Shown here: in pieces, positions 32,423 to 53,659 of the stretch
How the letters are laid out: each line of letters begins with the position of its first letter
Numbering within the stretch: the stretch's first letter is position 1
Virus record (IMG/VR): IMGVR_UViG_3300046323_000360
Span: 32,192-96,191 of that record
Length of the DNA: 64,000 nt
Source: a virus
Reading direction: 5' to 3' (one strand)
Translations under genes and position numbers: made by a program
The notes under the pieces: generated by a model
Databases searched by the model: none
What the model saw: the letters and a program-made list of their open reading frames with translations, nothing else
Told to the model about the DNA's origin: nothing

Positions 32423-32650
32423 GCTAGGCAGGGTTACGGCAGGGGCTAGGGTTTAGGGCTTCTAGGGGCTAGTCGGCAAAGGGCTAGGGGCTAGGCAGGG
32501 CTAGGCAGAGTCTTCTAGGGGCTAGGCAGGGCTAGGCGAGTAAATACCTAGTCTGAGCCGTGTAGGGCTTCTAGGGGCTTCTAGGGGCTTCTACGGCAAT
32601 AACCCTAGTGAATGGCTATTGGCAGGGCTAGGCAGGGCTAGGCAGGGTAA
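32423..32650 (+). repeat. degenerate G-rich tandem repeats (GGCAGGGCTA / CTTCTAGGGG units)
   Basis: Many consecutive ~10-bp units in a gene-free stretch. Confidence 0.8.
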
Positions 32651-32702
32651 AAGAAAACCGCCTAACCCCAAAGGGCTAGGCGGTCTCGAGAGCCGTGTAG
32701 GG

Positions 32703-32969
32703 CTAGCAGTCCAAGTCTTGAAGACTTGCCAACTTCATACCAATAAGGTCTAGGAAGTCCGCATACTTCGCAGTGTGTGGGGCTTGACGAACAGCGTCAG
32801 CACGGTCACGCAGAGCGTAGCGGATAGCCGAAACTTCATCATCGCTGAAGTGGTTCAGCAAGTCTGAAGTCGCATCGGCAACAACCATAACGGTTCCGAA
32901 GTCATTAGTAACAACTGGAATAGGCACGATAAATCCCCTTTCAGGATTATGAAGTCCGATTGACTTCAT
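32703..32969 (-). CDS. hypothetical cassette protein (leaderless)
   Basis: TTGCGA-N17-TATGAT-N6-ATG at 32969. Confidence 0.7.
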   Translation of the reverse strand: MKSIGLHNPERGFIVPIPVVTNDFGTVMVVADATSDLLNHFSDDEVSAIRYALRDRADAVRQAPHTAKYADFLDLIGMKLASLQDLDC

Positions 32970-32975
32970 ACCTAA

Positions 32976-33004
32976 ATCATACAGCAACTAATCAGCAATC
33001 GCAA
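32976..33004 (-). promoter_or_regulatory. sigma-A-type promoter, example of the cassette promoter class
   Basis: TTGCGA-17 nt-TATGAT with extended TG; the same layout (TTGCG(A/C), often TGTCG in the spacer, TAnnnT) recurs ~18-30 nt downstream of the 17-bp motif. Confidence 0.75.
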
Positions 33005-33115
33005 ATCGAGCGAATAGGGTCAGGGCCATTTGCCAGAAAAAATAAATACATCAACCGGCGAGCGCCGGCAAGCGCACAAACTTGAGCCGTGTGCCAGTCC
33101 ACGCCAGCGGAAACG

Positions 33116-33146
33116 CAAAAAGCCCCCTGCCTTTCGGCAAGGGGCT
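33116..33146 (-). terminator. intrinsic terminator, example of the cassette terminators
   Basis: AGCCCC-TGCC-TTTC-GGCA-AGGGGCT hairpin with an A-run on +, i.e. U-tract on -; similar hairpins follow nearly every cassette gene. Confidence 0.75.
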
Positions 33147-33160
33147 TCGGGGGTTTGTGT

Positions 33161-33511
33161 CTAGCGGAACAAGTTCACAATCACCGAAAAGCGAGTGCGC
33201 TTCTTGCTCTGGTCAATCAGCGGAACAATCGCCGACACAAGGTCAGGGTAGGTTGCGGTTAGGGCTTCAACGAAATCGGCTTCGTTGAATGTGGCACGCT
33301 CACGCCAGTCACGGCGAGCAACTTCAACATTGTGGTGAACCAGCAAATCGCTGTCACCAAAAGCCGTGTTGATGGCCTTGTCCAACTGCTTCTTTTCGGC
33401 TTCAAGGTCAGCAATCTGCTTCTTGACTTCGGCGAAACGCTTGACGGTTTCGACAATCTCACGGCTTGCCTTGCTTGCTACTGCGGTTGTTACTGCGGTC
33501 ATTGTGACCAC
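33161..33511 (-). CDS. coiled-coil hypothetical protein, paralog family A
   Basis: LLVHHNVEVARRDWRERATFN shared with 38410 and 45800 ORFs. Confidence 0.75.
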   Translation of the reverse strand: MVTMTAVTTAVASKASREIVETVKRFAEVKKQIADLEAEKKQLDKAINTAFGDSDLLVHHNVEVARRDWRERATFNEADFVEALTATYPDLVSAIVPLIDQSKKRTRFSVIVNLFR

Positions 33512-33722
33512 CCCTTTCGGGCTACTTATGTTTCACCCTTGCTTGATACTTCAAGCATACAGGGTTTCAACCAGAAGCGCAAATCGAAATGCCACGCAGG
33601 GGAAACTTCCAGAAAAAATAAATACATCAGCCCTGCCCGCCAACTCGCCTGCGAGAAGTGAGCCGTGTAGGGTAAAAGAAAACCCCCTAGCCTTTCGGCT
33701 AAGGGGTTACTGGGGGCTACAC

Positions 33723-33911
33723 CTATTCGGCGTAGTTGAAGCGCTTGTCCAGCAACTCTGGAGCAAACGCCTCAAGAATGTTGGCAATCTCGCTAATGCG
33801 AGTTAGGCGAGCGTCAGGGCGCTCGTCATCGCTAGAGCCGTTGAAGCCTTCGGCTTCGACAGCGTCCATTAGCGTCGAACACTCGACGGCTAGAGCCTTT
33901 AGGTTAGACAT
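33723..33911 (-). CDS. hypothetical cassette protein
   Basis: GAAAGGGG RBS, own promoter and terminator. Confidence 0.7.
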   Translation of the reverse strand: MSNLKALAVECSTLMDAVEAEGFNGSSDDERPDARLTRISEIANILEAFAPELLDKRFNYAE

Positions 33912-34126
33912 TTGAAACCCCTTTCGCCAGAACCTTTCTGGCTTGATAAATCAAGCATAGCACTATCGGCAAACTCTCGCAACACGCACGCACCGACGCG
34001 GATCGTTTTTCAGAAAAAATAAATACATCATCTTCCCCGAACTTTGAAGTTGTTCAGAAGTGAGCCGTGTTACGCAGAGCAAAGAAAAACCCCCAGCCTA
34101 ACGGCTAGGGGTCAAACTTTCTTGGG

Positions 34127-34306
34127 CTAGAACTCTACGCCCTCAGCGCCATAACGAACACGATAGGCGTGGATAGTCTCAGCGTTACGGCGAGCCTGAG
34201 CCTTGAACTCTTTAGCCTCTTGGAACTTATAGACGGCAATCAAGATACCAAAGGCTAGAACATTAGCCCCCACGATAAAGGCGATAACGGATACAAAAGT
34301 TAGCAT
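34127..34306 (-). CDS. small membrane protein (59 aa, below ORF-track cutoff)
   Basis: MLTFVSVIAFIVGANVLAFGILIAVYKF...; start overlaps previous stop. Confidence 0.6.
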   Translation of the reverse strand: MLTFVSVIAFIVGANVLAFGILIAVYKFQEAKEFKAQARRNAETIHAYRVRYGAEGVEF

Positions 34307-34503
34307 TACTTTTCACCCCCATTGCCATAGGCAAATAAGCCAACTAGAAAACCAACAAAACCTAATGACGCAAAGAACGCAGGAACAAATAGCAACTCGA
34401 AAGTCTGCACTGAGCCGTGTTTGATTGCGTCACCTAGCCAGATAAGTATTGCCCCAAAAAACATTACGGCTACGAAGTTCGCAACCTTTACCTTGAAGTT
34501 CAT
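34306..34503 (-). CDS. small two-helix membrane protein
   Basis: Likely start MNFKVKV after GAAAGGGAG RBS. Confidence 0.65.
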   Translation of the reverse strand: MNFKVKVANFVAVMFFGAILIWLGDAIKHGSVQTFELLFVPAFFASLGFVGFLVGLFAYGNGGEK

Positions 34504-34697
34504 TACTCCCTTTCCCTCAAGCAACTCTTGCTTGATACATCTAGCATACACCTTGCCTACGACAAAAGCAAACTCTGAAGTAAGCCGTGTATAGGGTTTT
34601 ACATAAAAAATAAATACACTCGGGCGACCTGCGATTTCGCCAAACTCGGCAAACAAAAAACCCGCCACTAGGGCGGGTTAGTTGTTGAGTTGTTGGG

Positions 34698-34904
34698 TTA
34701 GAAAAGTTTGCCTTTTCCAGTGAAGAAAGTGAATACGACTGCGCCAGCGATACCGAAAGTGAATCCATTATTCCACGCTTCGGCAATACCGAAACTAGCA
34801 CCAGCACCAAGTCCGATTAGCAATGCACAAAGAACTACATAAGCAAGAGCAATGGCAGGAACTAGAACAATACTTGCTACTGCTCGGCGGATTACATACT
34901 TCAT
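34698..34904 (-). CDS. small membrane protein
   Basis: Likely start MKYVIRR after AAAAGAGGG RBS. Confidence 0.65.
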   Translation of the reverse strand: MKYVIRRAVASIVLVPAIALAYVVLCALLIGLGAGASFGIAEAWNNGFTFGIAGAVVFTFFTGKGKLF

Positions 34905-35121
34905 TTTTTCCCTCTTTTCAGTTGGAACTTTTCCAACTAACTCAATGCTACACCAACTGAAAAACTTTCGCAACTTCAAGTGAGCCGTGTAGTAGTAGTT
35001 GGCGGAAAAAATAAATACACGAACAACAAAAGAAAAAACTGAAGTCACTCGCGGCGACTCCAGCCCAGACAAAAGAAAAGAGGGCTAATCAGTTTCCTGA
35101 CTAACCCTCTCGCCTCACGAA

Positions 35122-35352
35122 CTAGTGGCTCTTGCTGAACCCTAGGCAATCCTCGTTACCGCACTCGCACTGCTCGACTCCGTGTAACTGCTCTGAGCAA
35201 CCCTCGGCAGAACATACCTGCCCGAAGTCCAACTCTACGCACCCATACCAGCCTGCGTAACTTGCGTGGCTCTTTGCGTGAAAGTCTGAACAAAAGTATT
35301 CAGCCTCGACTACATCGCCCTTAGTGTCCTCGATAAGAACTGCGTTAGCCAT
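35122..35352 (-). CDS. Cys-rich hypothetical protein
   Basis: GAGGGGAG RBS; several CxxxxC/CxC motifs. Confidence 0.6.
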   Translation of the reverse strand: MANAVLIEDTKGDVVEAEYFCSDFHAKSHASYAGWYGCVELDFGQVCSAEGCSEQLHGVEQCECGNEDCLGFSKSH

Positions 35353-35566
35353 AATGACCAACTCCCCTCTATTTAGTTTCCAACTCAAGCCCCTCGGCTT
35401 GATACATCTAGCCTAACACGACCCTCTGACTTTTCGCTTGACTCTCGCCGTGTCCTAGTCCAACTTGCAGAAAAAATAAATACAGCCGCCGGCGACAACT
35501 TTGAAATAAAAATAAGAAAAAGAAAACCCCCGCCTTTCGACGGGGGTTCGCTGGTTTATTTGTTTG

Positions 35567-35836
35567 TTAGCGGTTTAGGTTTGAGAGGTTGAAGTGTTCA
35601 ACCATAGAGAGTTCATACTCTGCCCATTCTTTGGCTTCGGCTTCGGCTTGCTCGATAGTTGTCACGCCATACACCGTGCGAATGTCCACTACATCAAAGA
35701 AGATACCTGCGTAGTGCGCTGGCTTGAACCACTGAAAAGTTGCTGACCCGTTCCAAGTAATGAAAAACTCGTTCTCGCTGTCTGCGTAAATAATCGCCCC
35801 GTTGTCCTTGACGATGTCATAAATCTTATTGCTCAC
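35567..35836 (-). CDS. hypothetical cassette protein
   Basis: GAAAGGGG RBS, promoter and terminator. Confidence 0.7.
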   Translation of the reverse strand: MSNKIYDIVKDNGAIIYADSENEFFITWNGSATFQWFKPAHYAGIFFDVVDIRTVYGVTTIEQAEAEAKEWAEYELSMVEHFNLSNLNR

Positions 35837-36021
35837 TTGTTGCCCCTTTCAACCAGACTTTCTGGCTATGTCTATAGCCTACCCTACTCCCACGACATTT
35901 GCCACCCCACCCCGGCGCGGTTACCAGAAAAAATAAATACACTAACCACCATCAAGAAAAACCAAACAAGCAAAAAGAAACCCCGTGTTTCCACGGGGTA
36001 TCTCCGAATACTTTTTAGTTG

Positions 36022-36279
36022 TTAGAAAACCAACTCTGGCAACTCAAACACTTCACGCAACTTTGCTTCCAACTTGTTTAGGTTGCTCTCGGCTTTCTCG
36101 AATGAACCCCAAACATAGTTTGTAGTTAGACGCTGGATTTCTGCGTTGCGAGCGCACTCTGCCCAAACCATAGCGATAGTCATTTCACTCTGGTAATAGG
36201 CTTTCAAGTCGCCACCAACCAACTTGCGAACGATAGCAAACGCCGTGTCTTGGTTTTGCTTGATAGTCAAATCAGTCAT
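36022..36279 (-). CDS. hypothetical cassette protein
   Basis: GAAAGGG RBS, promoter and terminator. Confidence 0.7.
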   Translation of the reverse strand: MTDLTIKQNQDTAFAIVRKLVGGDLKAYYQSEMTIAMVWAECARNAEIQRLTTNYVWGSFEKAESNLNKLEAKLREVFELPELVF

Positions 36280-36472
36280 TTGTCTTTCCCTTTCTCAAGC
36301 CCCTTGCTTGATAGTTCAAGCATACACCACCCCTTCGACAAAACAAGTATTCTTATTGCGTTGTTGCGTCACCTGGCAGAAAAAATAAATACAGATAGAC
36401 ACAACAAAAAAGCAAAGATAAACGGGCAAAGAAAAAACCCCGTGTTATCCACGGGGCTTCAACTTCAAACTA

Positions 36473-36640
36473 TTAGCGAATAGTCAATACGCCCTTGCTA
36501 TCAAGTTCAACTTCCAAGTCAAAGTGCGTTGCGTTTTCAACGACCTTGATTTGGTTGCCAACTGATAAGCGACCTACCAAGATACCTGCTCCCAAAATAC
36601 CGAAACAAATAATGGCAAAAGCCAATCCTGCGTAATCCAT
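36473..36640 (-). CDS. small membrane-anchored protein (55 aa)
   Basis: MDYAGLAFAIICFGILGAGILVGRLSVGN...; start overlaps upstream stop. Confidence 0.6.
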   Translation of the reverse strand: MDYAGLAFAIICFGILGAGILVGRLSVGNQIKVVENATHFDLEVELDSKGVLTIR

Positions 36641-36807
36641 TATGCCCACTCCCTTAGTGCGTTAGTCTTGCGAGCCAATCGAGTATTGGCACGCTTTGTT
36701 GCTTTGTTGCCGTGAACGCCACTTGCGTTCGAGCGTGAACGCTCACGCAAGATTACGGCGAGCGCCTTGCTCTCTGCCTTGCGTCTTGCTTCGTTAGCCT
36801 TGTTCAT
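36640..36807 (-). CDS. small basic protein (55 aa)
   Basis: MNKANEARRK...RSRSNASGVHGNKATKRANTR; GAAAGGGG RBS. Confidence 0.6.
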   Translation of the reverse strand: MNKANEARRKAESKALAVILRERSRSNASGVHGNKATKRANTRLARKTNALREWA

Positions 36808-36977
36808 CTTGAACCCCTTTCATCTGGCTTATTCCAAGCCTACCACACCCCTACGACAAAGCAACTTATGACTGCACCGTGTGTAGGGTTATTGACAGAA
36901 AAAATAAATACACCAAACCCCTACAACTTTCGGGCAAAAGAAAACCCCCGCCGAAGCGGGGGCTTGCTTGCTGGGGG

Positions 36978-37145
36978 CTAGAGCCGAGGGTCGTGTTCGC
37001 TCATCTCTGACGGCTTTGGATAATAACCCTCGGTAACCTCCCAAGGGAAGTCTGGCGTTGGGTCGTAGCAGCTCTCGCAAACGCTATCGCTTTCGCTAAT
37101 CTCGGCTTTGCAGTATCGGCAAATCTCTGTTTCGTTGTTTGACAT
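36978..37145 (-). CDS. small Zn-ribbon acidic protein (55 aa)
   Basis: CRYC...CESC; GAAAGGTAGGG RBS. Confidence 0.55.
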   Translation of the reverse strand: MSNNETEICRYCKAEISESDSVCESCYDPTPDFPWEVTEGYYPKPSEMSEHDPRL

Positions 37146-37289
37146 TTCCCTACCTTTCTTTCTTGGTTACTACCAAGTTACACCATCTGACCAACAAAGT
37201 CAAATCGAAGTTCCGTGTTGGGGTTTATTGGCAGAAAAAATAAATACATACAGGGGTCGAGAAAAAAGGCGGGTTTCCCCGCCCTTTCC

Positions 37290-37652
37290 CTAGTTGCTTG
37301 CGTAAGCCAACACTGCTTGCTCTGTCGCCTTGAGAAACGCTTCAACATCAGACTCGCTGAGTGGAAGTTCATTGCCCTCGTCATCTGTCTTGTTCGATAC
37401 CAAAACAACATCGCCCAAGATAACATCTGTCTTGCCGTATGACGCTTCCCAAATAGCGGTGGCAATGTCGTTGAATGGGAGTCCAATCAACTTGCCCTCG
37501 TCGTGAATGTAAAGTGCCAAGCCCTTAAACGCTCCACGCAACGCAATGTGCTGGATAGTTCCGCCTACTGCTTCACGAATGTCCTTGTAAGCAATCTCTG
37601 GCATCTCTACCAAGTCCAAGTCCGTTGTGATACGAACACCTGCTACAGCCAT
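37290..37652 (-). CDS. DUF3846-like protein
   Basis: AVGGTIQ...YIHDEGKLIGLPFNDIAT...DVILGDVVL. Confidence 0.8.
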   Translation of the reverse strand: MAVAGVRITTDLDLVEMPEIAYKDIREAVGGTIQHIALRGAFKGLALYIHDEGKLIGLPFNDIATAIWEASYGKTDVILGDVVLVSNKTDDEGNELPLSESDVEAFLKATEQAVLAYASN

Positions 37653-37850
37653 TTCTGACCCCTCTCGTAGCCCTCCGCAACTTGCTTCCTGACTACATAA
37701 GTAGTCTACTCAATCCCTACGACTTTCGCTTGACTCGACTACCCGTGTGTGCGTTAGTTACATAAAAAATAAATACATAAGATAGCCCGTAACTTTCAGA
37801 CAAAAAGAAACGCCCTGCCTTTCGGCAGAGCGTCCTTTGGTGGTTGAGGT

Positions 37851-38216
37851 TTATTCGTCCTCGTCCTCGTCGTCGTCGTCGTTACAGACACCAGCGCAAC
37901 CAGCCTCACCGCAGTCCTCGCACTCGTCCTCGTCAAACTGTCCGATTAGAGTGGTGAAGCCGTCGTTAGGGTCAGCCAAGTTTGTAGCCACGGCACTCAC
38001 GAAACGAAGTGAGCAAGACTGGTCAAACCATTTCTTGACAGTTTCAAGCATTTCGATCGACGACATCTCACTAGCCGTGATGATTGGGTCATACTCATAC
38101 TTACGCATAAGTTCAACTTGCTCGTCATCCATAAGAACATAAATCTTGTGGCAAGTGTCCCAGGTGATTGCCTTAGCGTCCTCTAGGTATTCCTCTACCT
38201 TGTCGAAGTTAGCCAT
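37851..38216 (-). CDS. acidic hypothetical protein
   Basis: Likely start MANFDKV; WDTCHKIY...WFDQSCSLRFV; Asp/Glu tail. Confidence 0.7.
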   Translation of the reverse strand: MANFDKVEEYLEDAKAITWDTCHKIYVLMDDEQVELMRKYEYDPIITASEMSSIEMLETVKKWFDQSCSLRFVSAVATNLADPNDGFTTLIGQFDEDECEDCGEAGCAGVCNDDDDEDEDE

Positions 38217-38409
38217 TTCATTTCCCTTTCCTTGTATCAACTTTTGTTGATAACTCAATCTTACTCGTCTGCTATGACTTTCGCAAATCGTCGCCAACTG
38301 AGAGCCGTGTTTACAGAAAAAATAAATACACCTCCGGCACGCAACTTTTTTCATTTCCGGCAAACGCAAAAAACCCCGCCAACTTAGGCGGGGTATCTGC
38401 GACTAACTC

Positions 38410-38805
38410 TTACTTGTAGAGAGTTGTCAAGGTTGTGTAGATAGTCTGGCTCTGGGCTTCGGCAGTTGCCTCGGCAAGCATAGTGTCTAGGCTATCTGCC
38501 AACTCTGGGTGAGTGGCAACAACTAGGTTGGTGAACGCTACCTTGAAAGCGTCAAGGTTGAAGTTGGTGCGACTACGCCAATCCAAGCGAGCGACCTCGA
38601 TGTTGTGATGAATAAGAGTGTCGAACGCTGAAGTCTTAGCCGTGTCGTCTTTCTCAAACTCTTTCTCCAAGACAGCAACAACTTTCTTAGCCTGACCCTC
38701 TAGAGCCTTGACCTCGGCACGAATGTTTACAAGTTCCTTAACTTGCTCAACAACTACCTTGCTGACTTTCTTAGTGCGAACCTCGGTTGCGGTTGCGATA
38801 GACAT
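38410..38805 (-). CDS. coiled-coil hypothetical protein, paralog family A
   Basis: TLIHHNIEVARLDWRSRTNFN. Confidence 0.75.
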   Translation of the reverse strand: MSIATATEVRTKKVSKVVVEQVKELVNIRAEVKALEGQAKKVVAVLEKEFEKDDTAKTSAFDTLIHHNIEVARLDWRSRTNFNLDAFKVAFTNLVVATHPELADSLDTMLAEATAEAQSQTIYTTLTTLYK

Positions 38806-39017
38806 TTGTTCCCTTTCTATAATCTCTGGCATTTCCTTCGACTACCTAAGTAGTCTATACCCTATTTACGACATTTGCCAAACTCTGAGCCGTGTCGAGG
38901 GTAATACGCAGAAAAAATAAATACACTAACCGGCTGCCACCTTCAGCAAACTTTTGAATAAGAAAAAACCGCCTTAGTCGAAACTAAGACGGATTATCTT
39001 TTTGCTTGTGAGTTTGG

Positions 39018-39296
39018 TTACTGCCAGCGAACAACACGCTTACGGCTATTGCTAGGCGTAATGTGCCAAATAGCCTGCCTTGCCCAATGACCATTCGCAT
39101 AACGCATAGCGGTTGCGAAGTTGTCATAAGTCTTAGACGAACGCCCATTATCCCAAGCGAGTGTCAAGACAAACTTTCCCTTGACCTCACCCGTGTATGA
39201 ACGAACATCAACAATGTTTCCGCTGTAATCTTTTTCTTCGATTACTAATGCGCCCTCGACCTCACCTTTGGTGAAGTAATCTTTGTTGTAAATCAT
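39018..39296 (-). CDS. hypothetical cassette protein
   Basis: Likely start MIYNKD after GAAAGGG. Confidence 0.65.
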   Translation of the reverse strand: MIYNKDYFTKGEVEGALVIEEKDYSGNIVDVRSYTGEVKGKFVLTLAWDNGRSSKTYDNFATAMRYANGHWARQAIWHITPSNSRKRVVRWQ

Positions 39297-39480
39297 TTGT
39301 TTCCCTTTCTTATTGTCCCTTTCGGGCTTACCTAATAAGCCTAACATACTCTACGGCAAAGTCAAGTTCAGCCAGAGATAGTGGCAAAACTAGCAGAAAA
39401 AATAAATACACGCAGGTCGAAATAAAAAAATCAGCAAAAGAAAAACCCCTGCCAAAAGGCAGGGGCTTGTCCGTGTCTGA

Positions 39481-39669
39481 TTACCAGACACGAACTCCGT
39501 GAACGCTACCGCACTTACAGTGTGCCTGAGCGATACCGCCGTCAATCATCGCTGGGTCAATCTCTACATCAGCAGAGCAGACTGGGCAGGTGAAGAACTC
39601 TACAGTCTCGACTACACCGCCTAGGTAAGTTACCTCGCGAGTGCTTACTACTACATTTAGAAGTGCCAT
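39481..39669 (-). CDS. small Zn-ribbon protein
   Basis: CPVC...CKC; GAAAGGG RBS. Confidence 0.6.
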   Translation of the reverse strand: MALLNVVVSTREVTYLGGVVETVEFFTCPVCSADVEIDPAMIDGGIAQAHCKCGSVHGVRVW

Positions 39670-39841
39670 TTCTTTTCCCTTTCGTTGGCTTATGTAATAA
39701 GCATAGCATTGTTTTAGACTTTTTCAACTTTTATTATTTTCTTCTTTTTGATTAGCAGAAAAAATAAATACAAAAAAAAAAAAAAAAAAAAAAAAAGGCA
39801 AAAGAAAAACCTCGGGTTTCCCCGAGGCTTCCTTTCTGCCC

Positions 39842-41183: not shown

Positions 41184-41192
41184 GTCTAAAAA

Positions 41193-46141: not shown

Positions 46142-46332
46142 CTCTGCCCCTCTCTATAAGTCTTACTTCTGTTTCTGACTTATGTAGTAAGTCTATACCC
46201 TAACTACGACTTTTGCGCAAATCGTTTGCTGAAAAATCCCGTGTCGTCAGAAAAAATAAATACACTCCCGGGTTGAAAAAATCGGGCAAGAAAAAACCCT
46301 CTCTTGCGAGAGGGCATTTCCCGTGTCGCTCG

Positions 46333-46539
46333 CTAGTTGCGAACATCAAGTCCACGGCGACGCAAGTCTTGAAGTATGTTTTTCAAGGCTCGATTGTCGC
46401 TTGGGGTGCTTGCTGAAAAGAAGAAGTCCCGTGCGTTAGGTGCTATCCACTTGTAGTGTCCACCCTTAGTGAGTTCGACTCTCCAGCCAGCCTTGATAGC
46501 GAGTTTTATCAAGTTGCCTAGTTCCTTTTTGTTAGCCAT
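46333..46539 (-). CDS. HicA-like protein
   Basis: AGWRVELTKGGHYKW...STPSDNRALKN...DLRR, HicA-like pattern common in actinophages. Confidence 0.7.
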   Translation of the reverse strand: MANKKELGNLIKLAIKAGWRVELTKGGHYKWIAPNARDFFFSASTPSDNRALKNILQDLRRRGLDVRN

Positions 46540-46773
46540 TTGTGTTTCCCCTTTCTTTGGCTATACTCATAGCCTACACCTTGCCAGCGACATTTGCACA
46601 AAAAACTTTTTGTTTGGCGTGTCAAGTTCAGAAAAAATAAATACACTTGCCCCCGTGACAAAAAAAAAAAGAGAGCCACAACCGAAAGGGGGTAAGGTTG
46701 TGACTCTCTAGGCGGAGTAATCTCACGCCTTTGTTGGCAGGGGAAAGGGGGGTTTACCCTGCCAAGTTTGTGC

Positions 46774-47109
46774 CTAGACTTTTGTCTTGGCAAACTCCGT
46801 GATAGTTTCGCCCTCGTATTCGTATTCACCCGTGTCGGCGTTTACGATTACAGTTGGGTTATCCATCCAAACATCGTCATTGTCTGCGTAGTTGTCAATC
46901 CCGAAACTCAACTCGCCATCGTAGTTGCCTAGTTTGGCGAACTCAAAGAATAGTTGAGCCGTGAGATAGGTAACATCTCCAATGCGCCCCGTGCGAGCCA
47001 AAACATTACGCACGGCAGTTAGGTTGTCGTCACCTGACCAGTGACCATAAAAAGTTATCGGTGTTGGAAAAGCCTCTGCCTTTACAACAATCATACTGCG
47101 GTCGCCCAT
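46774..47109 (-). CDS. conserved phage hypothetical protein
   Basis: MGDRSMI...YGHWSG motif. Confidence 0.7.
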   Translation of the reverse strand: MGDRSMIVVKAEAFPTPITFYGHWSGDDNLTAVRNVLARTGRIGDVTYLTAQLFFEFAKLGNYDGELSFGIDNYADNDDVWMDNPTVIVNADTGEYEYEGETITEFAKTKV

Positions 47110-47274
47110 TTCAAATCCCTTTCATCTGGCTACTGCGCTTCACCTGATACTTCAACATTACCAGCATTTACACTCCAGCGCAACATCTGGCAAATCCCGT
47201 GTCTAGTGTCAGAAAAAATAAATACAAATCCCGTATAAGAAAAAACGCTGGCGACTTCTCACCAGCGTTATTCC

Positions 47275-47568
47275 TTAGTTGATTAGGTTGTCAATGTCGA
47301 AGTGAAACTTTTCTGGCAGGTTCTCTTTTGTCCAAGCAGAAAACTCTTTGTATTCTGCCAAGATTGCGTGTCCCTTTGCCATAATGTCTGACATTTCGGT
47401 AATGATGTAGCCAATAATCTCTGGCGTTAGTTCAATGTCCTTATGTCCAATGTATGCCTGTAGCCCCTCAATGCGAGCGTCAAGACCCATTTTGCGTTTG
47501 CTGATAATGTCGCCTGTAATCTTGGCGACCTGTAAGTTCAGCATTAGGTTTTTTTCGTTTTTACTCAT
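47275..47568 (-). CDS. hypothetical protein (leaderless)
   Basis: TAGAGT-N6-ATG at 47568. Confidence 0.65.
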   Translation of the reverse strand: MSKNEKNLMLNLQVAKITGDIISKRKMGLDARIEGLQAYIGHKDIELTPEIIGYIITEMSDIMAKGHAILAEYKEFSAWTKENLPEKFHFDIDNLIN

Positions 47569-47678
47569 ACTCAAACTCTATCCCAACCCTGTGACATTTT
47601 GCTAGAACCTTTTGGCAAGTGTCAGAAAAAATAAATACAACCTCGGCAAAAAAGAAAAAGTGCCTTTCGGCACTTTCA

Positions 47679-47912
47679 CTACTTGCGGTTTAGCAACTCC
47701 GCTTTTTCGTTGTGGTTGCGAACGAATACAGACTCCACCGCTACGGCTTCGTGTCCGCGCAACTGCTGAACCTGACCAGCCGTCAAAAAGTAGAACCTGC
47801 GAACGAGTCCGTCTTTGTATTCGGCGAGCGCGGTTGTCGCAAGCGTTTGAGTGCGAAAGGTAGCAACTAGGCTATCCGCGCCGTCATACAGAGCGTAGGC
47901 TTTAGGCTTCAT
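47679..47912 (-). CDS. hypothetical protein
   Basis: Likely start MKPKAY overlapping upstream gene end. Confidence 0.55.
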   Translation of the reverse strand: MKPKAYALYDGADSLVATFRTQTLATTALAEYKDGLVRRFYFLTAGQVQQLRGHEAVAVESVFVRNHNEKAELLNRK

Positions 47913-48267
47913 CGTCCTCGCCGTCCTCGTCAATGAACACAATCTCAAGTTTGGTAACGCGCTCGCCCCAGCCGTCAATCTCGCGCAAGGTAGCATACAC
48001 AGGATAGTATCCGTCACCCAAGCCTGTCCGTGAAACTACACCCGCGCCTGCCGTTCCACCGTCAAACTCCAACTGACCGATAGGGTGCTTGTGCTCCGCT
48101 AATGTAGTAGCGCACGCCCCGCCGTATGAGTAGTGTCCAATGTAACCCTCGCCGTAGCCCTCTTTGCCCCAGCCGTCGAGGTAGCCAGGGTCGGTAATCA
48201 AAATCTGTCCGCTATCAACCGCGCAATAGCCGATACAAACTGTCCGTTCCGTGTATGTGTTAGCCAC
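47902..48267 (-). CDS. DUF4241-like protein
   Basis: IGYCAVDSGQILITDP...TGLGDGYYPVYA. Confidence 0.7.
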   Translation of the reverse strand: MANTYTERTVCIGYCAVDSGQILITDPGYLDGWGKEGYGEGYIGHYSYGGACATTLAEHKHPIGQLEFDGGTAGAGVVSRTGLGDGYYPVYATLREIDGWGERVTKLEIVFIDEDGEDDEA

Positions 48268-48269
48268 GC

Positions 48270-48401
48270 CTACGCCTTTCCTTGTAGTGCTAGTGCGAAC
48301 CAATCTTCGAACGCCGTGTCGCAATCCTCGCATAAAGGGTGAACCGCGCCGACAGGTGCTTCAATCTCCGTGTCGCACTTATAGCAAGTTGTCTGTTCCA
48401 T
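48270..48401 (-). CDS. small Zn-ribbon protein (43 aa)
   Basis: CYKC...CEDC; fills the gap in a short operon. Confidence 0.5.
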   Translation of the reverse strand: MEQTTCYKCDTEIEAPVGAVHPLCEDCDTAFEDWFALALQGKA

Positions 48402-48405
48402 AGTT

Positions 48406-48690
48406 CTAACTTACCACTAAGTCGGCGTATTCGTCAAGTGCTTCTGGCGTGTCTGGAATGGTGTGTCCAGCCATACGAAATCCAGCCTCGATGATTAGGC
48501 TGTGTGGTTCAAAACCTAAGGCGTGTGCCACAATCTCAAGAAACTCTGACGAGATTTCCTTTTTGCCACGCTCAACTTCTGACAGATAGCCAAGAGCAAT
48601 AAAGCCTTTGTCTGACAAGTCGCGCAACACCATTCCACGACTTAGGCGTGTTTCGCGTAGCACTTCGCCAAGAGCGTCTTTGAATAGCAT
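48406..48690 (-). CDS. ClgR-like XRE-family transcription regulator
   Basis: LGEVLRETR...LRDLS...LGYLSEVERGKKEISSEFL closely follows the actinobacterial ClgR pattern. Confidence 0.82.
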   Translation of the reverse strand: MLFKDALGEVLRETRLSRGMVLRDLSDKGFIALGYLSEVERGKKEISSEFLEIVAHALGFEPHSLIIEAGFRMAGHTIPDTPEALDEYADLVVS

Positions 48691-48885
48691 TTAGTGTTCC
48701 TCTCCTTTTCGTGTTTCGTATCAAAACTCTACCAGCAACCTATGACATTCTCCAACTTCGTATTAGCGTGTTCAAAAGTTAGCAGAAAAAATAAATACAT
48801 TCGTGTTCCCCTGAAAATAGAGAAGTCGCCAACGAACCCGAGGGGGGGGGTTCGCTGACGACCTCGTGTGTCTGACCTCTGGGGG

Positions 48886-49275
48886 TTAGATAGTCAGAAC
48901 CTTAGGTGACACCTTGCTTGGTGGTAGCAAGAATGTAGCAAGCATTTCTGGGTGGTTCTTGGTGATGAAGTCCAGCATAGCCTTAGCGTCATACTTAGGC
49001 GTGTCAGAGGGCTTATCGTAACGAACCTTGACAAGACGCTTGCCCCTTGCGTCTGTGCCAATGACAGTAACGCCAAAGTCAAGTTCGCCCAGAACAATCT
49101 CACGAGCAGACTTGATGTTAGCGTCAATCTCTTTTTCGAGTAGGTGTGCCTGTGCCAAAGCCTTTACAGCCTTTTGCGCCTTAGGCGTGATTACGACCAG
49201 AGTTTCCTCGGTGGTCGCAGTGAGGTCGCTAGTAGCAACCTTAGCGGTGGTGCTTGGTTTTGTTTTAGTAGCCAT
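48886..49275 (-). CDS. hypothetical protein, distant member of family A (leaderless)
   Basis: TTGCGA-N17-TAAGGT-N7-ATG at 49275; Thr/Ala-rich N-terminus, YDAKAML..NHPEM tail. Confidence 0.65.
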   Translation of the reverse strand: MATKTKPSTTAKVATSDLTATTEETLVVITPKAQKAVKALAQAHLLEKEIDANIKSAREIVLGELDFGVTVIGTDARGKRLVKVRYDKPSDTPKYDAKAMLDFITKNHPEMLATFLLPPSKVSPKVLTI

Positions 49276-49388
49276 ACCTAAAACCTTAGCAGGTTGTTTC
49301 GACATTCGCAACTCCTCGCAGAAAAAAGTCAGAAAAAATAAATACACGCTGGGGGAAAAGAAAACCCAGACTTTCGTCTGGGCGTTTC

Positions 49389-49601
49389 TTACCAGAAAAC
49401 TGGAATAGGTTTTTTCTCTGTGTCAATGGATAGGACTTTCCAAGAGTCCACTCCCCAGAGCAATCCGAGTTCTGAACCGTTGTCCCACTTGACGCGTAGA
49501 ACGCGTCCCCAAATGTCATTGGTTTCGCTGACAACAGTTCCCAAATCACCGGGCTTCAAATCCGTGTGCTTGTCCGTTGTGTGTAGTAGTTGGATACGCA
49601 T
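49389..49601 (-). CDS. DUF4314-like protein
   Basis: LKPGDLGTV...VKWDNGSELGLLWGVDSW. Confidence 0.75.
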   Translation of the reverse strand: MRIQLLHTTDKHTDLKPGDLGTVVSETNDIWGRVLRVKWDNGSELGLLWGVDSWKVLSIDTEKKPIPVFW

Positions 49602-49605
49602 TGCT

Positions 49606-49869
49606 CTACTCCTCTTCGTCTGTGTAGTGTGCGTCAATCTCTGTAAGCGAGCCGAGTTCATAACTGTCGCAGTAGTAGCACTCGCCGTCACTATCCGCTG
49701 GCATTGGGTGGTTGTTATCTACGAACCACGCCGCCCACTCTGATAGGTCATACTCACGCACCGATTCAATGTATTCATCAAAGTGGTCGTCCAAGCCAGC
49801 CGTGTCAATAATGGTAATACCCTCGGCACTGCCCCACGAGCCGTCCTCGGCAAAAAACATCTTAGCCAT
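49606..49869 (-). CDS. acidic hypothetical protein
   Basis: FFAEDGSWGSAEG.. motif; GGAGGAG RBS. Confidence 0.65.
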   Translation of the reverse strand: MAKMFFAEDGSWGSAEGITIIDTAGLDDHFDEYIESVREYDLSEWAAWFVDNNHPMPADSDGECYYCDSYELGSLTEIDAHYTDEEE

Positions 49870-49978
49870 TAGTGGTTCTCCTCCGCATCGCAACCTTGGT
49901 CAAAGCACTCTTCGCAATAGCCGTTTCCCAGCAAGCCGTCCGTAACCGAACAGGCTTGGCACTTACATTCTTTTTCCA

Positions 49979-50203
49979 TTAGAAAACCATTTCTCCTAGA
50001 ACCTTGCCGATACGAATGCGAGCCTCGTTGAGAATGGCATACTCGTCACTGTCCTCGCCAATGATGTCAGCGACAATCGGCATAGCCTGTTCAATCGCAT
50101 ACTCGGCTGTTTCAGTTGGCACTTCTAGGTCTGACTCGGCTTCAGCAATCTTGGCAATCAAGCCAGACAGAAGCAAAACATCTTCTTTCAAATCCCGTTC
50201 CAT
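49979..50203 (-). CDS. acidic helical hypothetical protein
   Basis: GAAAGGA RBS. Confidence 0.65.
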   Translation of the reverse strand: MERDLKEDVLLLSGLIAKIAEAESDLEVPTETAEYAIEQAMPIVADIIGEDSDEYAILNEARIRIGKVLGEMVF

Positions 50204-50544
50204 TTGTGTCCTTTCTTTGGGGTCTTATCAAGTTAGCAGTTTATTGAGTTGTTGTCAAATCATTAGTCATAATCATCATAAAAAATAAATACATAGTCAT
50301 AAGGTGGAAAAGCCACAGGGAAGTTTTCTGGTTAGCGTTCGCGCTTTGGACAAGTCCAGTCGGCTACTGACATTCAGGTTATCCCTGTGGCTGTTCCGTG
50401 TTTAGCGACACTGCTGTCGGTTTTCCTAGCAAAATGGTCAGTTTCTAAGCATAGTAGCGGAGTCTAGAACACTCCTACACCGCAACTGATTTACAGCGTC
50501 CCTCGGGGCAATCCGTGCTAGGGAAGTCTTTATTTAGTTCTAGG

Positions 50545-51537
50545 TTACACGCTTGCCGTTTCTGTGTCAAGTGGCTTCTCCTCATTACAGAATACGCAGG
50601 AGAACCCGACCTGCTGGGTCGTGCCGTCCACTAGTTTGCTTAGAGGCACAAACTTGTGTTCGCAGACTTTGACTTTAGGCTCGCCGTCATTCAGCGTAGG
50701 GAACAAACGCTCGCCGTTTTCATTGGTAACAAAAATCGCCGTGTTGTCCTCTTGTAGTTCCATTTGCTCGTCAGGGTCATTGTCCTGTGCGAGTTCCCAA
50801 GCGTTCTCTGCCGTGTTGGTGCGAACCTTGTAGGTCTTGGTGACAACTACATAGAAGTCCTGCTCTGGGCGTGGGCAGTCCTCATACCAGTCGTCTTGGT
50901 CGTCAGAGTGTTCGCAGGGACACTCGCGGTCACGCGCAACATAGTCGGCGTGGCAATCAGGAATGTCCCACTCCTCCGTGGTAATCAGAGAACGCTCGCC
51001 CTCGTCGCCGTCAGACGAAGTAAACTTCACGCCCCAGCCCTGTTCCTCCTCGCACTCAAAGTCGAAGTCCAGAGTCGGGTGCTGTTCGACCATAGCCACG
51101 AAGACAGGTTCAGGAACAGACCACGCAGTTTCAAAAGTAATGTTGGCAGAGGCGTTGCCCTTGTCGTCCTTACTGATTTCGACATTCGGGCTACCAGCGT
51201 CCCACTTAGTTCCCCACTCACGAATGTTCCAGTCATACCAGCCATTGCCAGTAAACTTCAGGTCAAACGCAAACTGCTCCTCTTTAGTCCAGCCCTCGTA
51301 TTCATCTGGCTTCTTGCCGTGTGCGTCTGCGAAGTAGGCTTCCTTGTCCTCTGGCTCAATGAAGTTCCAGAATGAGAATGGGCTTTCGTTCATAGCGTCC
51401 TTGGTTTCATTCTCCTTGGTTTCGGAGTTCCAAGTGGTGTGCTTGGTTGGGTATTGCTTCCCAGCCTTTTCCACGAACGCAGTAATGTCTGCTTCTGTTC
51501 CAGACACTCCTACATAGTTGTAAACCCAGTTTGGCAT
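50545..51537 (-). CDS. DUF1281/Api92-like ferredoxin-fold protein
   Basis: MPNWVYN...WYDWNIREWGTKWDA...FETAWSVP. Confidence 0.75.
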   Translation of the reverse strand: MPNWVYNYVGVSGTEADITAFVEKAGKQYPTKHTTWNSETKENETKDAMNESPFSFWNFIEPEDKEAYFADAHGKKPDEYEGWTKEEQFAFDLKFTGNGWYDWNIREWGTKWDAGSPNVEISKDDKGNASANITFETAWSVPEPVFVAMVEQHPTLDFDFECEEEQGWGVKFTSSDGDEGERSLITTEEWDIPDCHADYVARDRECPCEHSDDQDDWYEDCPRPEQDFYVVVTKTYKVRTNTAENAWELAQDNDPDEQMELQEDNTAIFVTNENGERLFPTLNDGEPKVKVCEHKFVPLSKLVDGTTQQVGFSCVFCNEEKPLDTETASV

Positions 51538-51796
51538 TTGATTTCCTTTCGTTGCCTTAGTTCAGGATAGCATACCTTCAATCAACAAGCAACTACTAAT
51601 CAAAAGTTTTCTCTTTCTTTTTTTCAGAAAAAATAAATACTCCCCTCGAAAATACCGGGCGAAGCGAAACCCCCGACCAGTGAAAGGAGTTGGTCAGGGG
51701 TTTCTAATCTGGTGGTCAGTAGCACTTCATTGGGCTATGCGCGGAGAAAGGAACGGAACAACACCGCGCCCTGACCACCAGACTTCTTGGGGCTAG

Positions 51797-53659
51797 TTAG
51801 AAACCAGCCGTTGCTTTTTCCAGAGCCTCGCTCGCTGACTTTCCAATCAGGGTCGCAATGTTGCTTGGCTCTAGTCCGTCAAGCAGAACCGCGTGAGTTC
51901 CCTTGATAATCTCACGAGCGTTCCAACGCTCGCCGTGAACCTTGTCTGGGCTAATCCAGAGAACAGCCACGCCGTTCTTTTCGCAAGCCTTGACAGCCTG
52001 ACGCGCGTTCTCGGTTTCAACATCTGTATAACAGCCGTCCGATACGACAACCAACATACGCGCACCGCGTCCGTAGAGCAGGTCAAGTGTGCCGTCCAGA
52101 GCCGAGAAACCCTTGCCAAACTTTTCTGTGCCGTCCGTTGCCGAATAGACGCGAACCTCGTCCAACTTCTGTCCGACCTTTAGAGTGGCGAACACATCAT
52201 TGCCGTAATAGACCATAGCGGTCTTGGCTTGAATACGCTTGCCAGCCTCACCAAGAACCCACGCCGTAGTTGCCATAGGGTTCATAGCCGAACCCATAGA
52301 ACCGCTAATGTCCACCATTACGCCGATAGACAGAGTTGGCTCGTCCGTGTGCTTGCGAACCTTGTGTTCCCACGCAGGGTTCTTGCTCATAATGCCCTTG
52401 CTCTCTAATGCCTTGTTCTGAACAAGAGCGCGAGAACGCAGACGACCTGCTGGCAGTTCCGAGCGAATAATCGTCAAGTCGCGCTCGCGGTATTTTGCCT
52501 TGTCCAACATCTGCGCGACTTTGACAGAGGCAATGCGCTCTGCCGAAGTTGGCTTGCGAACCTCGACCAAGCGAGAGCCAGAGCGAGAGGAGGGCATAGT
52601 GGTCGTGCCTTTGCTATCGCCATTGCTCTGCTCAAAAACTTCTTGGGCAGTTGCCTTGTTAGAACGAATAATCTTTTGGGTCTTGGCGCGTTCTTTGGTT
52701 TCCTTATCCCAATCCTCTTGGGTCTGCTGGTCGCCCAGAGCGTTGCCAGTTGCGATAGCAGTTTCCATTGCGTCCTCTGCCAGAGCCTCAATGAGTTCGA
52801 CAATAAAGTTGCCCTCGCCCTCGCCCTCGCCCTCGCCAGAACCAGAGCCAGCGATAACAAAGCCACCCTCGCCCTCGCCAGTTTCCTCGCCCTGTTCCTC
52901 GGCGCGTTCCTTTAGCAGTTCGACCCACTTGGTAGCCAGCGCAATGCCAGCCTCTAGGTCGCCTGTCTTGTGGCAAACGAGAGCCTGAAAGTCAATCCAG
53001 ATTTCGCGCAACTTGGCAACTAGGTCTGGGCTAAGAACCTCAAGAACCTTTTGCTCAACAAGCAGAATGTCGCTTGTTTCAAGAACGCCAGCGTCCACGC
53101 GAGCCAAAGACAATCCTGCTAGGTGAGCAGTTGCGAAAGTCTTGGTCATTTTTTCAAGGTCGCCCTCGCTAAGGTCGCCCAGAGCAAGTTGTAGAGCAGA
53201 GGCGCGTAGGAACAACTTGTTCTCTGGCATACCCTTTGCCCCTAGACCCTCAATGCGACTTTCCTCCAAGAGCATAAAAGCGTCAATGACCTGCTTGTCT
53301 TGAGTCAGAGTTTCAAGATACTCAATGTTCCAAGTGGTGTGCTTGGCGTGTAGTGCCTCGTGATAGATAACCCCTGTTGCTTGTGGAAACTCAAACTGCT
53401 GGTCGCGCTCGCGGAGGTCGCCAACCATTGTTGGCGTAGTTGCCTTGCCAAAGGCAATAGGCAAGTTGATTTCGATTTCGGCGGTATCGCGGTAAAATGC
53501 GGCGAGTGCCTCTCCATTTACAGCGTCAATGCCAGCGTAAACAACTAGGTCAGTTCGACCTGCCCAATCGTTTGCGACCTGTCCAATCTGGGCGCAGGTG
53601 TGTAACCATTCGCGCGGAGTTTCGCTTTTGCGTTCCGCAATCCTTGAGTAGTGAGCCAT
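51797..53659 (-). CDS. vWA-domain protein with N-terminal HExxH domain (CobT/MoxR-partner type)
   Basis: YHEALH...LEESRIE; MIDAS VDISGSM and VVSDG. Confidence 0.85.
   Translation of the reverse strand: MAHYSRIAERKSETPREWLHTCAQIGQVANDWAGRTDLVVYAGIDAVNGEALAAFYRDTAEIEINLPIAFGKATTPTMVGDLRERDQQFEFPQATGVIYHEALHAKHTTWNIEYLETLTQDKQVIDAFMLLEESRIEGLGAKGMPENKLFLRASALQLALGDLSEGDLEKMTKTFATAHLAGLSLARVDAGVLETSDILLVEQKVLEVLSPDLVAKLREIWIDFQALVCHKTGDLEAGIALATKWVELLKERAEEQGEETGEGEGGFVIAGSGSGEGEGEGEGNFIVELIEALAEDAMETAIATGNALGDQQTQEDWDKETKERAKTQKIIRSNKATAQEVFEQSNGDSKGTTTMPSSRSGSRLVEVRKPTSAERIASVKVAQMLDKAKYRERDLTIIRSELPAGRLRSRALVQNKALESKGIMSKNPAWEHKVRKHTDEPTLSIGVMVDISGSMGSAMNPMATTAWVLGEAGKRIQAKTAMVYYGNDVFATLKVGQKLDEVRVYSATDGTEKFGKGFSALDGTLDLLYGRGARMLVVVSDGCYTDVETENARQAVKACEKNGVAVLWISPDKVHGERWNAREIIKGTHAVLLDGLEPSNIATLIGKSASEALEKATAGF

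Follow-up and report, generated by a model that had tools for sequence, protein, structure and literature searches.

The window analysed here is a 64-kb stretch of a 96-kb record from an uncultured freshwater actinobacterial phage, a siphovirus with WhiB, apparently lytic and of about 150 kb. It contains a domain that is almost devoid of ten 4-bp palindromes (AATT, ACGT, AGCT, ATAT, CATG, GATC, GGCC, GTAC, TGCA and TTAA; Table 1). AATT and GTAC do not occur in it at all, against 101 and 60 copies expected, respectively, and the density of 4-bp palindromes is 0-4 per kb inside compared with 31-65 per kb outside, where it is normal or raised. Palindromes of 6 bp are depleted 8-fold. The same kind of purged domain is found in the relatives G001-G004.

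The domain holds about 36 promoter-terminator cassettes, each headed by one copy of a conserved box, the T-box. This is followed, in order, by the hexamer ACACGG (often), a -35 element TTGCGA, the motif aTGTCGTa, a -10 element TAnnnT, a 5' hairpin, a Shine-Dalgarno sequence (SD), a small gene and a terminator. Terminator-like sites number 67 against 23 expected, nearly all of them on the - strand. The innermost conserved operon is palindrome-purged as well, yet its sole ACACGG is the copy at 52345. A repeat array at the outer edge of the ACACGG block is a candidate for a terminus, a pac or cos region, or a binding array, and the relatives show an enrichment of CCCCTA/CCCTAG in the corresponding position.

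Table 1 Coordinates of the features discussed, numbered from the first letter of the window
Feature	Position	Strand	Remark
Palindrome-purged domain, 24 kb	32036..56000 (about)		borders sharp, within about 100 bp
Inverted T-box copy, outer domain border	32367..32382	+	
Array of CCTAGCCC(C)T / CTAGAAGCCC repeats, outer block end	32400..32680		non-coding; holds first ACACGG copy
ACACGG block, 58 copies	32558..52350	- (sense; CCGTGT on +)	none in opposite orientation; exact counts
T-box GTATTTATTTTTTCTG, 16 bp	33034..56060	-	36 near-exact copies
Three-paralogue family	33161-33502, 38410-38805, 45800-46141		
172-aa protein	42991-43509		
HTH_3 protein, 94 aa	48406-48690		
Innermost conserved four-gene operon	51797..56060	-	176 aa, 153 aa, MoxR-type ATPase, vWA protein
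Inverted T-box pair, CAGAAAAAATAAATAC N11 GTATTTATTTTTTCTG, inner domain border	56045..56087		
Second polar word (T)AACGG, just outside purged domain	56251..60460	-	25 sense vs 1 antisense, genes and spacers

The ACACGG block lies inside the purged domain, at what is probably the genome end, beside the terminase and lysis genes. All of its genes are encoded on the - strand, so that CCGTGT on the + strand reads as ACACGG in sense. The initial annotation had estimated by eye about 58 copies of CCGTGT in 20 kb against about 5 expected. Exact counting gave precisely 58, the first at 32558 and the last at 52345 (ending at 52350), where an order-1 Markov model predicts 3.0-5.4 (P(>=58) between 1e-52 and 6e-39), an 11-19-fold excess. 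No further CCGTGT, nor any close variant of it, was found on the + strand in the rest of the 64-kb window, in agreement with the earlier statement that positions 1-31 kb are essentially free of it. ACACGG on the + strand is absent from the block (about 3-5 expected), again as reported, and occurs four times elsewhere in the window (at 6890-13623); the + strand of the whole 96-kb record carries 59 CCGTGT and 9 ACACGG. The proposed test of hexamer skew thus returned 58:0, neither near expectation nor symmetric between strands, and the block is the top-scoring hexamer block of the contig (log-likelihood ratio 117). The longer form GAGCCGTGT, described as frequent, has 10 copies against none on the other strand.

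The copies divide equally between genes and intergenic DNA (29 each), and the examples given earlier for both classes were confirmed (intergenic, 33663, 34985 and 38305; within genes, 33364, 36243, 39191, 45481 and 50811). They occur at a density of 1 per 340 bp within knife-sharp limits, starting ~500 bp from the domain border and thinning towards the inner side. Their spacing is more even than for random placement (CV of the gaps 0.66 compared with 0.975, P=0.0008). No enrichment was seen for any of the 18 variants that differ by one letter, which defines ACACGG as a strict hexamer, and its flanks are nearly free of information except for a weak CTCA after the word.

The proposed test of whether synonymous codons are chosen to create ACACGG had a positive outcome: genes of the block contain 29 copies compared with 6.3+-2.3 under synonymous shuffling (4.6-fold), which shows that the in-gene copies are made by synonymous codon choice. 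As 22 of the 29 share one frame, NAC-ACG-GNN, and the block is unusual in composition, with its purge of palindromes and a sense strand rich in G, one could regard the word as a functionless by-product of codon or oligonucleotide bias, of palindrome avoidance or of recent cassette duplication. Such a by-product is at odds with the excess over both the Markov and the shuffled expectation, with the lack of enriched one-letter variants and of flanking information, and with the presence of the word in unrelated genes and spacers while homologues elsewhere are without it. So far as counts can refute a reading, they refute this one, to which we attach practically no probability. ACACGG is a selected directional signal and no coding or repeat artefact. 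The directional DNA-level signal proposed by the initial annotation therefore stands, on the strict 58:0 polarity, the synonymous-codon origin, the occurrence in unrelated genes and spacers, and the analogous words of relatives described below.

Early genes shared with G001-G004 contain 10 sense copies in this phage but 1, 0, 0 and 1 in the respective homologues, indicating that the sites arise in place, under what would be a lineage-specific reader. For example, Asn-Thr-Ala of the SSB is encoded by AAC ACG GCT here and by AAC ACC GCT in G003. Outside the block, genes contain no sense ACACGG compared with 5.0+-2.1 expected, and all DNA contains 1 compared with 9.5, a moderate depletion (P about 0.007) that is absent in G001. 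Since antisense copies are present there in normal number (9-10), the word looks harmful in sense orientation in non-block genes. A one-sided orientation is also known from T7, where all CAGCAG sites of the genome share one orientation as an evasion of type III restriction, for which no excess is needed. In our case, 9 inverse copies occur elsewhere in the record and the block is enriched 11-19-fold, which does not match such evasion.

The word also has a preferred place within the cassettes. ACACGG was found 2-33 nt downstream of 19 of the 36 T-boxes, between the T-box and the -35 element, in addition to the 29 copies in genes and about 10 in 3' regions. Counted by start, 14 copies lie 0-15 nt and 16 within 40 nt after a T-box, compared with 4 in the 40 nt upstream (P=0.012). 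Only 3 of 35 cassettes are without ACACGG, compared with 7.7 expected (P=0.012), and in six the copy upstream of the -35 element is the sole one. No copy was found at an SD. This fixed place relative to the T-box argues that the signal is not indifferent to position.

About two thirds of the copies fall in transcribed sequence (genes and 3' UTRs), and the word is in sense in every unit. Together with its avoidance in sense in other genes, and with the short, strict words typical of RNases, this could point to a tag in early mRNAs, targeted by a T4 RegB-like endoribonuclease or an RNA-binding protein that would inactivate or mark early transcripts at the class switch. However, the densest class, the 19 copies upstream of their own -35 element, lies past the previous terminator and would be transcribed by read-through only, and it is this upstream copy alone that six cassettes have. 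RegB, moreover, has its targets in RNA that is transcribed, for the most part at the ribosome-binding sites of early genes, whereas a third of the present copies are upstream of the -35 element and none is at an SD. An RNA-level tag thus appears distinctly improbable.

We compared the purged domains of the relatives, counting skewed words as polar words only if they were context-free. They contain ACACGG/ACACGA, TGCGGT/G, GCTCGC, GGCGTG and GGCGAG, each in a set position with respect to a conserved 16-bp box that precedes the promoters. In G001, G003 and G004, ACACGG or ACACGA peaks just downstream of the T-box, as in this phage, while TGCGGK is found upstream of it (13 vs 1 in G004). Several polar words occur per genome, and they vary among close relatives (TerL 90% identical) and between adjacent sub-blocks. 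In this phage, a second word, (T)AACGG, follows the purged domain (Table 1), and AACGGA is found in the corresponding position in both G001 and G002. This change of word among relatives, the purged setting and the preferred promoter place had not been recorded in the initial annotation. Codon, repeat or RBS effects explain part of the skews of GGCGAG, CAGAGG, GACGAG and CTACGC seen in some genomes. No near-identical DNA was found in isolate phages; the nearest record of isolate type is that of Actinomycetia phage DSL-LC01 (TerL 65%), where promoter-like repeats occur but no comparable hexamer. A search for closer relatives of the early block yielded 53% identity at best, and no match usable for site conservation.

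The setting of the block resembles the first-step-transfer region of T5 (10.1101/866236; PMC10644984), where small genes of host-takeover type, driven by strong promoters of their own, form a terminal block and restriction sites matter in that block alone. The T5 region lies in a long terminal repeat and enters first, with a stop signal; in our phage, the inverted T-box pair sits at the inner border of the domain. By analogy, our purged domain, with its near absence of 4-bp palindromes, may be first-entering, restriction-exposed DNA. The two phages are unrelated and differ in that the domain spans 24 kb here compared with about 10 kb in T5, two-step entry is putative here, and these studies mention no polar hexamer array in T5.

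Exposed DNA of this kind could require a Chi-like signal. ACACGG, on the strand ending 3' at the entering end, would then be read by a helicase-nuclease of the host (RecBCD, AddAB or AdnAB type) or of the phage, stopping degradation or promoting recombination of the first-exposed DNA. There is precedent in LLS, MD8 and P1, with many co-oriented Chi sites towards their right, first-entering end (32:0 in MD8; PMC12315714). The present word resembles these in being short, strict and of single orientation, in being written into genes and concentrated at the presumed first-entering end, and in being gained and lost as modules shuffle. The location of the block at the presumed genome end, its inward thinning, and a purge that would mark exposure to host nucleases are consistent with such a role; a single entry direction would explain the total polarity, searches for YqaJ, RecT, RecA and Erf genes found none, and T5 faces the same unsolved problem at its own exposed end (10.1101/866236). 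However, the Chi of those phages is the known 8-mer of the host, at about 1 per 1.9 kb, and is thus both longer and sparser than our hexamer. Furthermore, the position of a Chi-like site in the DNA should be irrelevant and each host should have one word; instead, different words occupy different fixed places relative to the T-box, several coexist in one genome, and they change between close relatives and sub-blocks. The second word falls beyond the purged domain, the sense-strand depletion elsewhere is left unexplained, and a Sak4-like AAA_24 recombinase is present alongside the SSB. The host-chromosome comparison proposed earlier revealed no notable excess of ACACGG in 151 Actinomycetia genomes, and one 1.44-Mb genome sample, in which replichores could not be resolved, displayed no polar use of the word; with stand-ins for the host of the phage, this is a weak test. 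Attenuation of a nuclease, one of the options of the initial annotation, is in our opinion unlikely, though it is the foremost rival of the reading favoured below.

A polar array that points to a putative terminus and stops there, with the same orientation avoided elsewhere, could also guide or brake a one-way motor (a terminase nearing the terminus, an FtsK-like pump or an entry ratchet) on the last-packaged, first-ejected 20 kb. Words in an already entered segment cannot help to pull in the rest, and promoter-specific placement and the differences between adjacent sub-blocks of relatives also speak against a motor; we know of no such word-guided mechanism for terminases. We regard this reading as very improbable, and the earlier idea of a translocase pulling DNA in found no support, the words being block-limited and different in adjacent blocks. 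On the coating protein, another of the earlier options, the data are neutral. KOPS and SRS are genome-wide polar 8-mers that converge on the terminus and are read by the gamma domain of FtsK. The present words instead keep within blocks of 4-20 kb and differ from one block to the next, which speaks against the KOPS option.

Of the systems named in the initial annotation, which had not chosen among them, the stoperators provide the favoured comparison, and ACACGG probably has to do with early transcription. Repressors of the L5 type recognise asymmetric sites that lie both at promoters and inside transcription units; all of these sites point in the direction of transcription, and a reversed site loses its effect (PMC9283540). 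In Cluster A mycobacteriophages (L5 gp71, TipsytheTRex repressor), these sites are 13-mers, about 25-35 in 50 kb (PMC9283540, PMC6550527). Shared with our phage are the actinobacterial host, the asymmetric transcription-oriented sites at promoters as well as in and between genes, their number of dozens per genome, and a specificity that varies among relatives. On the other hand, the 13-bp stoperators are read by a monomeric repressor with HTH and stoperator domains, whose binding blocks initiation as well as elongation, whereas here a strict 6-mer with uninformative flanks occurs 58 times in 20 kb of a single early domain, in an apparently lytic phage of about 150 kb whose relatives carry several words per genome.

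A search for a reader among 30 early proteins, scanned with Pfam and PHROGs, returned only the 94-aa HTH_3 protein (Table 1), the sole conserved HTH protein, and no gp71-like two-domain repressor. We rejected the HTH_3 protein as reader, given that relatives with other words share its recognition helix. The 172-aa protein was rejected as a Q-antiterminator: its weak PHROG match stems from two CxxCxGxG zinc-finger motifs, and it has no PDB relative. Three paralogues form a family with similarity to RecE-like exonucleases (phrog_434), namely to the C-terminal 100 residues of these enzymes. Of 7 ACACGG-rich loci, 6 contain the family, as do 6 of 40 ACACGG-poor ones, a comparison confounded by the amount of early DNA per locus; the family serves as a lead only to a word-linked gene.

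By analogy with operators and stoperators, we tentatively propose, as a plausible reading short of an even chance, that ACACGG constitutes oriented sites for a putative phage factor acting on early-cassette transcription. Such a phage-specific factor, presumably a protein, would recognise the oriented word and control the early cassette regulon within the restriction-site-free 24-kb end that may enter first. One copy would act at the promoter, immediately after the T-box and ahead of the -35 element, and further co-oriented copies would act throughout the transcription units, nearly every cassette having at least one. The likeliest purpose would be a timed shut-off or roadblock of early transcription through a presumed action on RNA polymerase, with an elongation or antitermination variant also conceivable; late genes on the same strand would have to remain without the sense-oriented word. 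The variation of words among close relatives and sub-blocks, and the tagging of the next block by (T)AACGG, fit class-specific regulators. Other points tell against this proposal: a protein that binds DNA specifically would be expected to need a site much longer than 6 bp (13 bp in L5), a 1.5-Mb host would carry hundreds of random ACACGG, and elongation blocks seem redundant where each cassette has its own promoter. Moreover, with all genes on one strand, transcriptional orientation is inseparable from orientation to the genome end, and the inverted T-boxes of relatives, which drive no genes, cannot separate the two.

If a protein does read the hexamers, about 36 independent transcription units would be addressed at once; early units could be switched off or protected while the rest of the genome is untouched, with a specificity that evolves quickly among relatives. 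More broadly, it is possible, if rather doubtful, that the first-entering end is split into blocks, each sense-tagged by its own 5-6-nt word and read by putative fast-evolving phage factors, and that a large family of actinophages from freshwater, all uncultured, is built in this way; such a positional or temporal DNA address code would then include stoperators and the Chi clusters of phages as special cases. The sharp palindrome-free domain, the conserved promoter box and the polar words would together provide a sequence-only signature of first-step-transfer-like entry outside T5, in phages whose hosts, uncultured freshwater Actinobacteria, cannot yet be grown. The finding bears on two questions stated as open for T5, namely how pre-early genes are shut off and how the exposed first DNA escapes nucleases (10.1101/866236; PMC10644984).

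Between 32558 and 52350 of the window, the + strand carries 58 copies of the hexamer CCGTGT, against 3.0-5.4 expected (P(>=58) = 1e-52 to 6e-39), and the word is found nowhere else in the 64 kb. Its reverse complement, ACACGG, is absent from the + strand of this block and appears elsewhere on that strand of the window only four times, at 6.9-13.6 kb. The initial annotation, which had estimated about 58 copies in 20 kb by eye, with none in the opposite orientation and essentially none at 1-31 kb, was accurate on each of these points, and the distribution is neither symmetric between strands (58 vs 0) nor near expectation. Over the whole 96-kb record, the + strand carries 59 copies of CCGTGT and nine of ACACGG, and the CCGTGT block is the strongest hexamer block of the record. 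As all 43 small genes in the block lie on the - strand, the word reads ACACGG in the sense direction. None of its 18 one-letter variants is enriched and its flanks carry no information except for a weak CTCA, which defines ACACGG as a strict, context-free hexamer.

Copies within genes and between genes, both of which had been noticed at first reading, number 29 each, with intergenic DNA making up 30% of the block. The genic copies are read as NAC-ACG-GNN (22), xxA-CAC-GGx (6) or ACA-CGG (1). Synonymous shuffling of the block genes yields 6.3±2.3 copies compared to the 29 observed, showing that synonymous codons are chosen to create the word, as the initial annotation had proposed to test. All other genes contain no sense copy (5.0±2.1 under the same shuffling), while their antisense copies are normal (10 vs 6.5 expected). 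The copies are also spread more evenly than by chance (gap CV 0.66 vs 0.975, P=0.0008).

The block is built of cassettes, each comprising a terminator hairpin and a T-box (a conserved 16-bp box upstream of the promoter), followed by a -35 TTGCGA, aTGTCGTa, a -10 TAnnnT, a 5' hairpin, a Shine-Dalgarno sequence and the gene. The T-box, which we take to resemble the distal subsite of an UP element, lies 18 to 40 nt from the -35. Terminator-like sites number 67 vs 23 expected, nearly all on the - strand; past one terminator, a run of ~25 T immediately precedes a T-box. Only three cassettes lack ACACGG (7.7 expected, P=0.012). Nineteen of the intergenic copies sit between T-box and -35. Of these, 14 begin 0-15 nt downstream of the T-box and 16 no more than 40 nt downstream, as opposed to four copies in the 40 nt upstream (P=0.012); about ten are located in 3' UTRs, in terminators or directly past them. 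A role of ACACGG as a target at the RNA level is less likely, as the most densely populated class of sites falls upstream of the -35 of its own cassette.

The block is enclosed by a domain with sharp borders in which ten 4-bp palindromes are nearly missing (AATT 0 vs 101 expected, GTAC 0 vs 60, AGCT 3 vs 103), with none of the ten occurring at 46.6-55.6 kb; 6-bp palindromes are depleted 8-fold. Palindrome density is 31 per kb outside the left border; the right flank (56-59 kb) has 49-65 per kb, more than the genome average of ~30. ACACGG is present throughout the domain except for its innermost 3.7 kb, where a conserved operon encodes a MoxR ATPase and a vWA protein; a (GGC GAG)n Gly-Glu repeat within the vWA gene inflates GGCGAG counts. 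A non-coding repeat array at the outer end may represent a terminus, a pac site or a set of binding sites for a protein, and CCCCTA/CCCTAG are enriched at its place in L019, L022, L024, L083, L085 and L088, all loci of relatives. In T5-like phages, only sites in the first-step-transfer DNA matter for restriction (PMC10644984). By this comparison, the domain would be the first DNA to enter the cell, where it would wait unprotected, and its position next to the lysis/terminase end fits a last-packaged, first-ejected end.

The window covers bases 32192-96191 of the 96-kb IMG/VR record (CheckV completeness 57%). Between TerL and the block lie a TerS-like HTH protein, an NlpC/P60 lysin and small membrane-type ORFs. 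The 815-aa TerL aligns in two pieces with a gap, against relatives and the nearest named record, the lake-derived Actinomycetia phage DSL-LC01, alike. WhiB genes, present in the record and three relatives, suggest that the host is an actinobacterium. An SSB gene is placed amid the early cassettes, and the only domain recognised in one 172-aa early protein is a pair of DnaJ-type CxxCxGxG zinc-finger motifs. The sole multi-copy family of the block consists of three small paralogous proteins with a conserved L-V-H-H motif, which match PHROG 434 ('RecE-like recombination exonuclease') over its C-terminal 100 positions (E ~1e-6) and are more frequent in ACACGG-rich relatives, a comparison confounded by differing amounts of early DNA among the loci.

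TerL relatives in IMG/VR comprise 88 loci (76-91% identity), and in each of the four long relatives examined (G001-G004) a palindrome-poor domain is found upstream of TerL. Their context-free polar words (short words strongly biased to one strand) are found inside this domain or beside it. More distant relatives, reached via a 330-aa early protein, carry GGCGAG (47 vs 2, sense vs antisense) and GGCGTG (28 vs 0); GGCGAG, which in L149 (61-13148) and L143 is accompanied by TGCCGA (26 vs 1) on the sense strand of genes and spacers, is stronger than any other polar word met with outside the studied record. ACACGG or ACACGA also follows the T-box in G001, G003 and G004, while TGCGGK is positioned upstream of it. 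The T-box itself has two variants among the phage and its relatives; G003 and G004, whose form is GTATTCGTTTTTTCCG, have additional inverted T-boxes directly after terminators with no gene downstream. Early genes are weakly conserved even at 90% TerL identity, about ten being common to the phage and its relatives. These shared genes contain ten sense ACACGG copies in the phage and 1, 0, 0 and 1 in the homologues of the four long relatives, and the Asn-Thr-Ala of SSB is encoded by AAC ACG GCT in the phage and AAC ACC GCT in G003, indicating that the sites arise in place. A literature search retrieved no description of such an array, and to our knowledge no hexamer array this dense, limited to a restriction-site-free early domain and with words varying across a phage family, has been described.

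Positions of the features and polar words in the phage and its relatives
Feature	Genome or locus	Position	Sense vs antisense	Remark
Structural module (siphovirus)	window	1-29 kb		- strand; tape measure, major tail, major head, portal, TerL
TerL gene	window	26601-29048
Palindrome-poor domain	window	32036 to ~56000
Inverted T-box copies	window	32367 and 56060/56072		flanking the domain
Repeat array, CCTAGCCC(C)T / CTAGAAGCCC	window	32400-32680		280 bp, non-coding; outer domain end
T-box, GTATTTATTTTTTCTG	window	33049-56060		36 copies, 30/36 exact
Paralogous small proteins	window	33161-33502, 38410-38805, 45800-46141
T run	window	39772-39796
172-aa protein	window	42991-43509
SSB gene	window	43703-44086
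Gly-Glu repeat	window	52819-52896
(T)AACGG	window	56251-60460	25 vs 1	genes and spacers; past the domain's inner border
Sak4-like AAA_24 gene	record	19542-20306		left part of record
Palindrome-poor domain	G001	131-145 kb
Palindrome-poor domain	G002	46-64 kb		partial
Palindrome-poor domain	G003	50-80 kb
Palindrome-poor domain	G004	6-36.5 kb
AACGGA	G001	145.1-149.6 kb		place equivalent to (T)AACGG
AACGGA	G002	39-45 kb		place equivalent to (T)AACGG
GCTCGC	G002		33 vs 0
GGCGTG	G002		31 vs 3
TGCGGT	G003		29 vs 1
TGCGGT	G004		24 vs 0
TGCGGG	G004		18 vs 0
ACACGA	G004		28 vs 2
ACACGG	G004		20 vs 0
ACACGG	L032		19 vs 0
ACACGG	L013		15 vs 1

An origin of the array as a by-product is excluded, as the excess is too large, the word is too strict and copies are found in unrelated sequence, leaving two explanations with precedents. 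The first is that of Chi-like sites acting on a helicase-nuclease that enters from the exposed first-entering end. Phages LLS, MD8 and P1 have co-oriented Chi sites clustered at this end (PMC12315714), the problem of the exposed end has been stated for T5 by Davison (10.1101/866236), and a single direction of entry would account for the total polarity. However, we found no strong ACACGG excess in the sampled Actinomycetia genomes, which argues weakly against Chi-like sites. The sample includes seven genomes marked unpublished (G011, G019, G028, G034, G036, G040 and G047), which bear only on this absence; G144, G035, G071, G120 and G133, whose DNA was retrieved, are not so marked. The presence of a Sak4-like recombinase gene is likewise weak counter-evidence; RecT, Erf, YqaJ and RecA family genes were found neither in the record nor in one complete relative.

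The second precedent is provided by the repressors of Cluster A mycobacteriophages, whose asymmetric sites are found at promoters and within transcription units and all point in the direction of transcription (PMC9283540). Against a similar role of ACACGG, six bases make a short recognition site for a protein, no reader protein was found, and transcriptional and absolute orientation are inseparable because all genes lie on one strand. In its favour are the preferred place at promoters, with different words in different places, a copy in nearly every cassette, the absence of the sense orientation from other genes, the variation of words between adjacent blocks and among close relatives, and the marking of the next block, beyond the purged domain, by another word. 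Chi-like sites account for none of these. On this comparison, we favour the interpretation that the ACACGG copies would be transcription-linked, stoperator-like sites of the phage's early cassettes.
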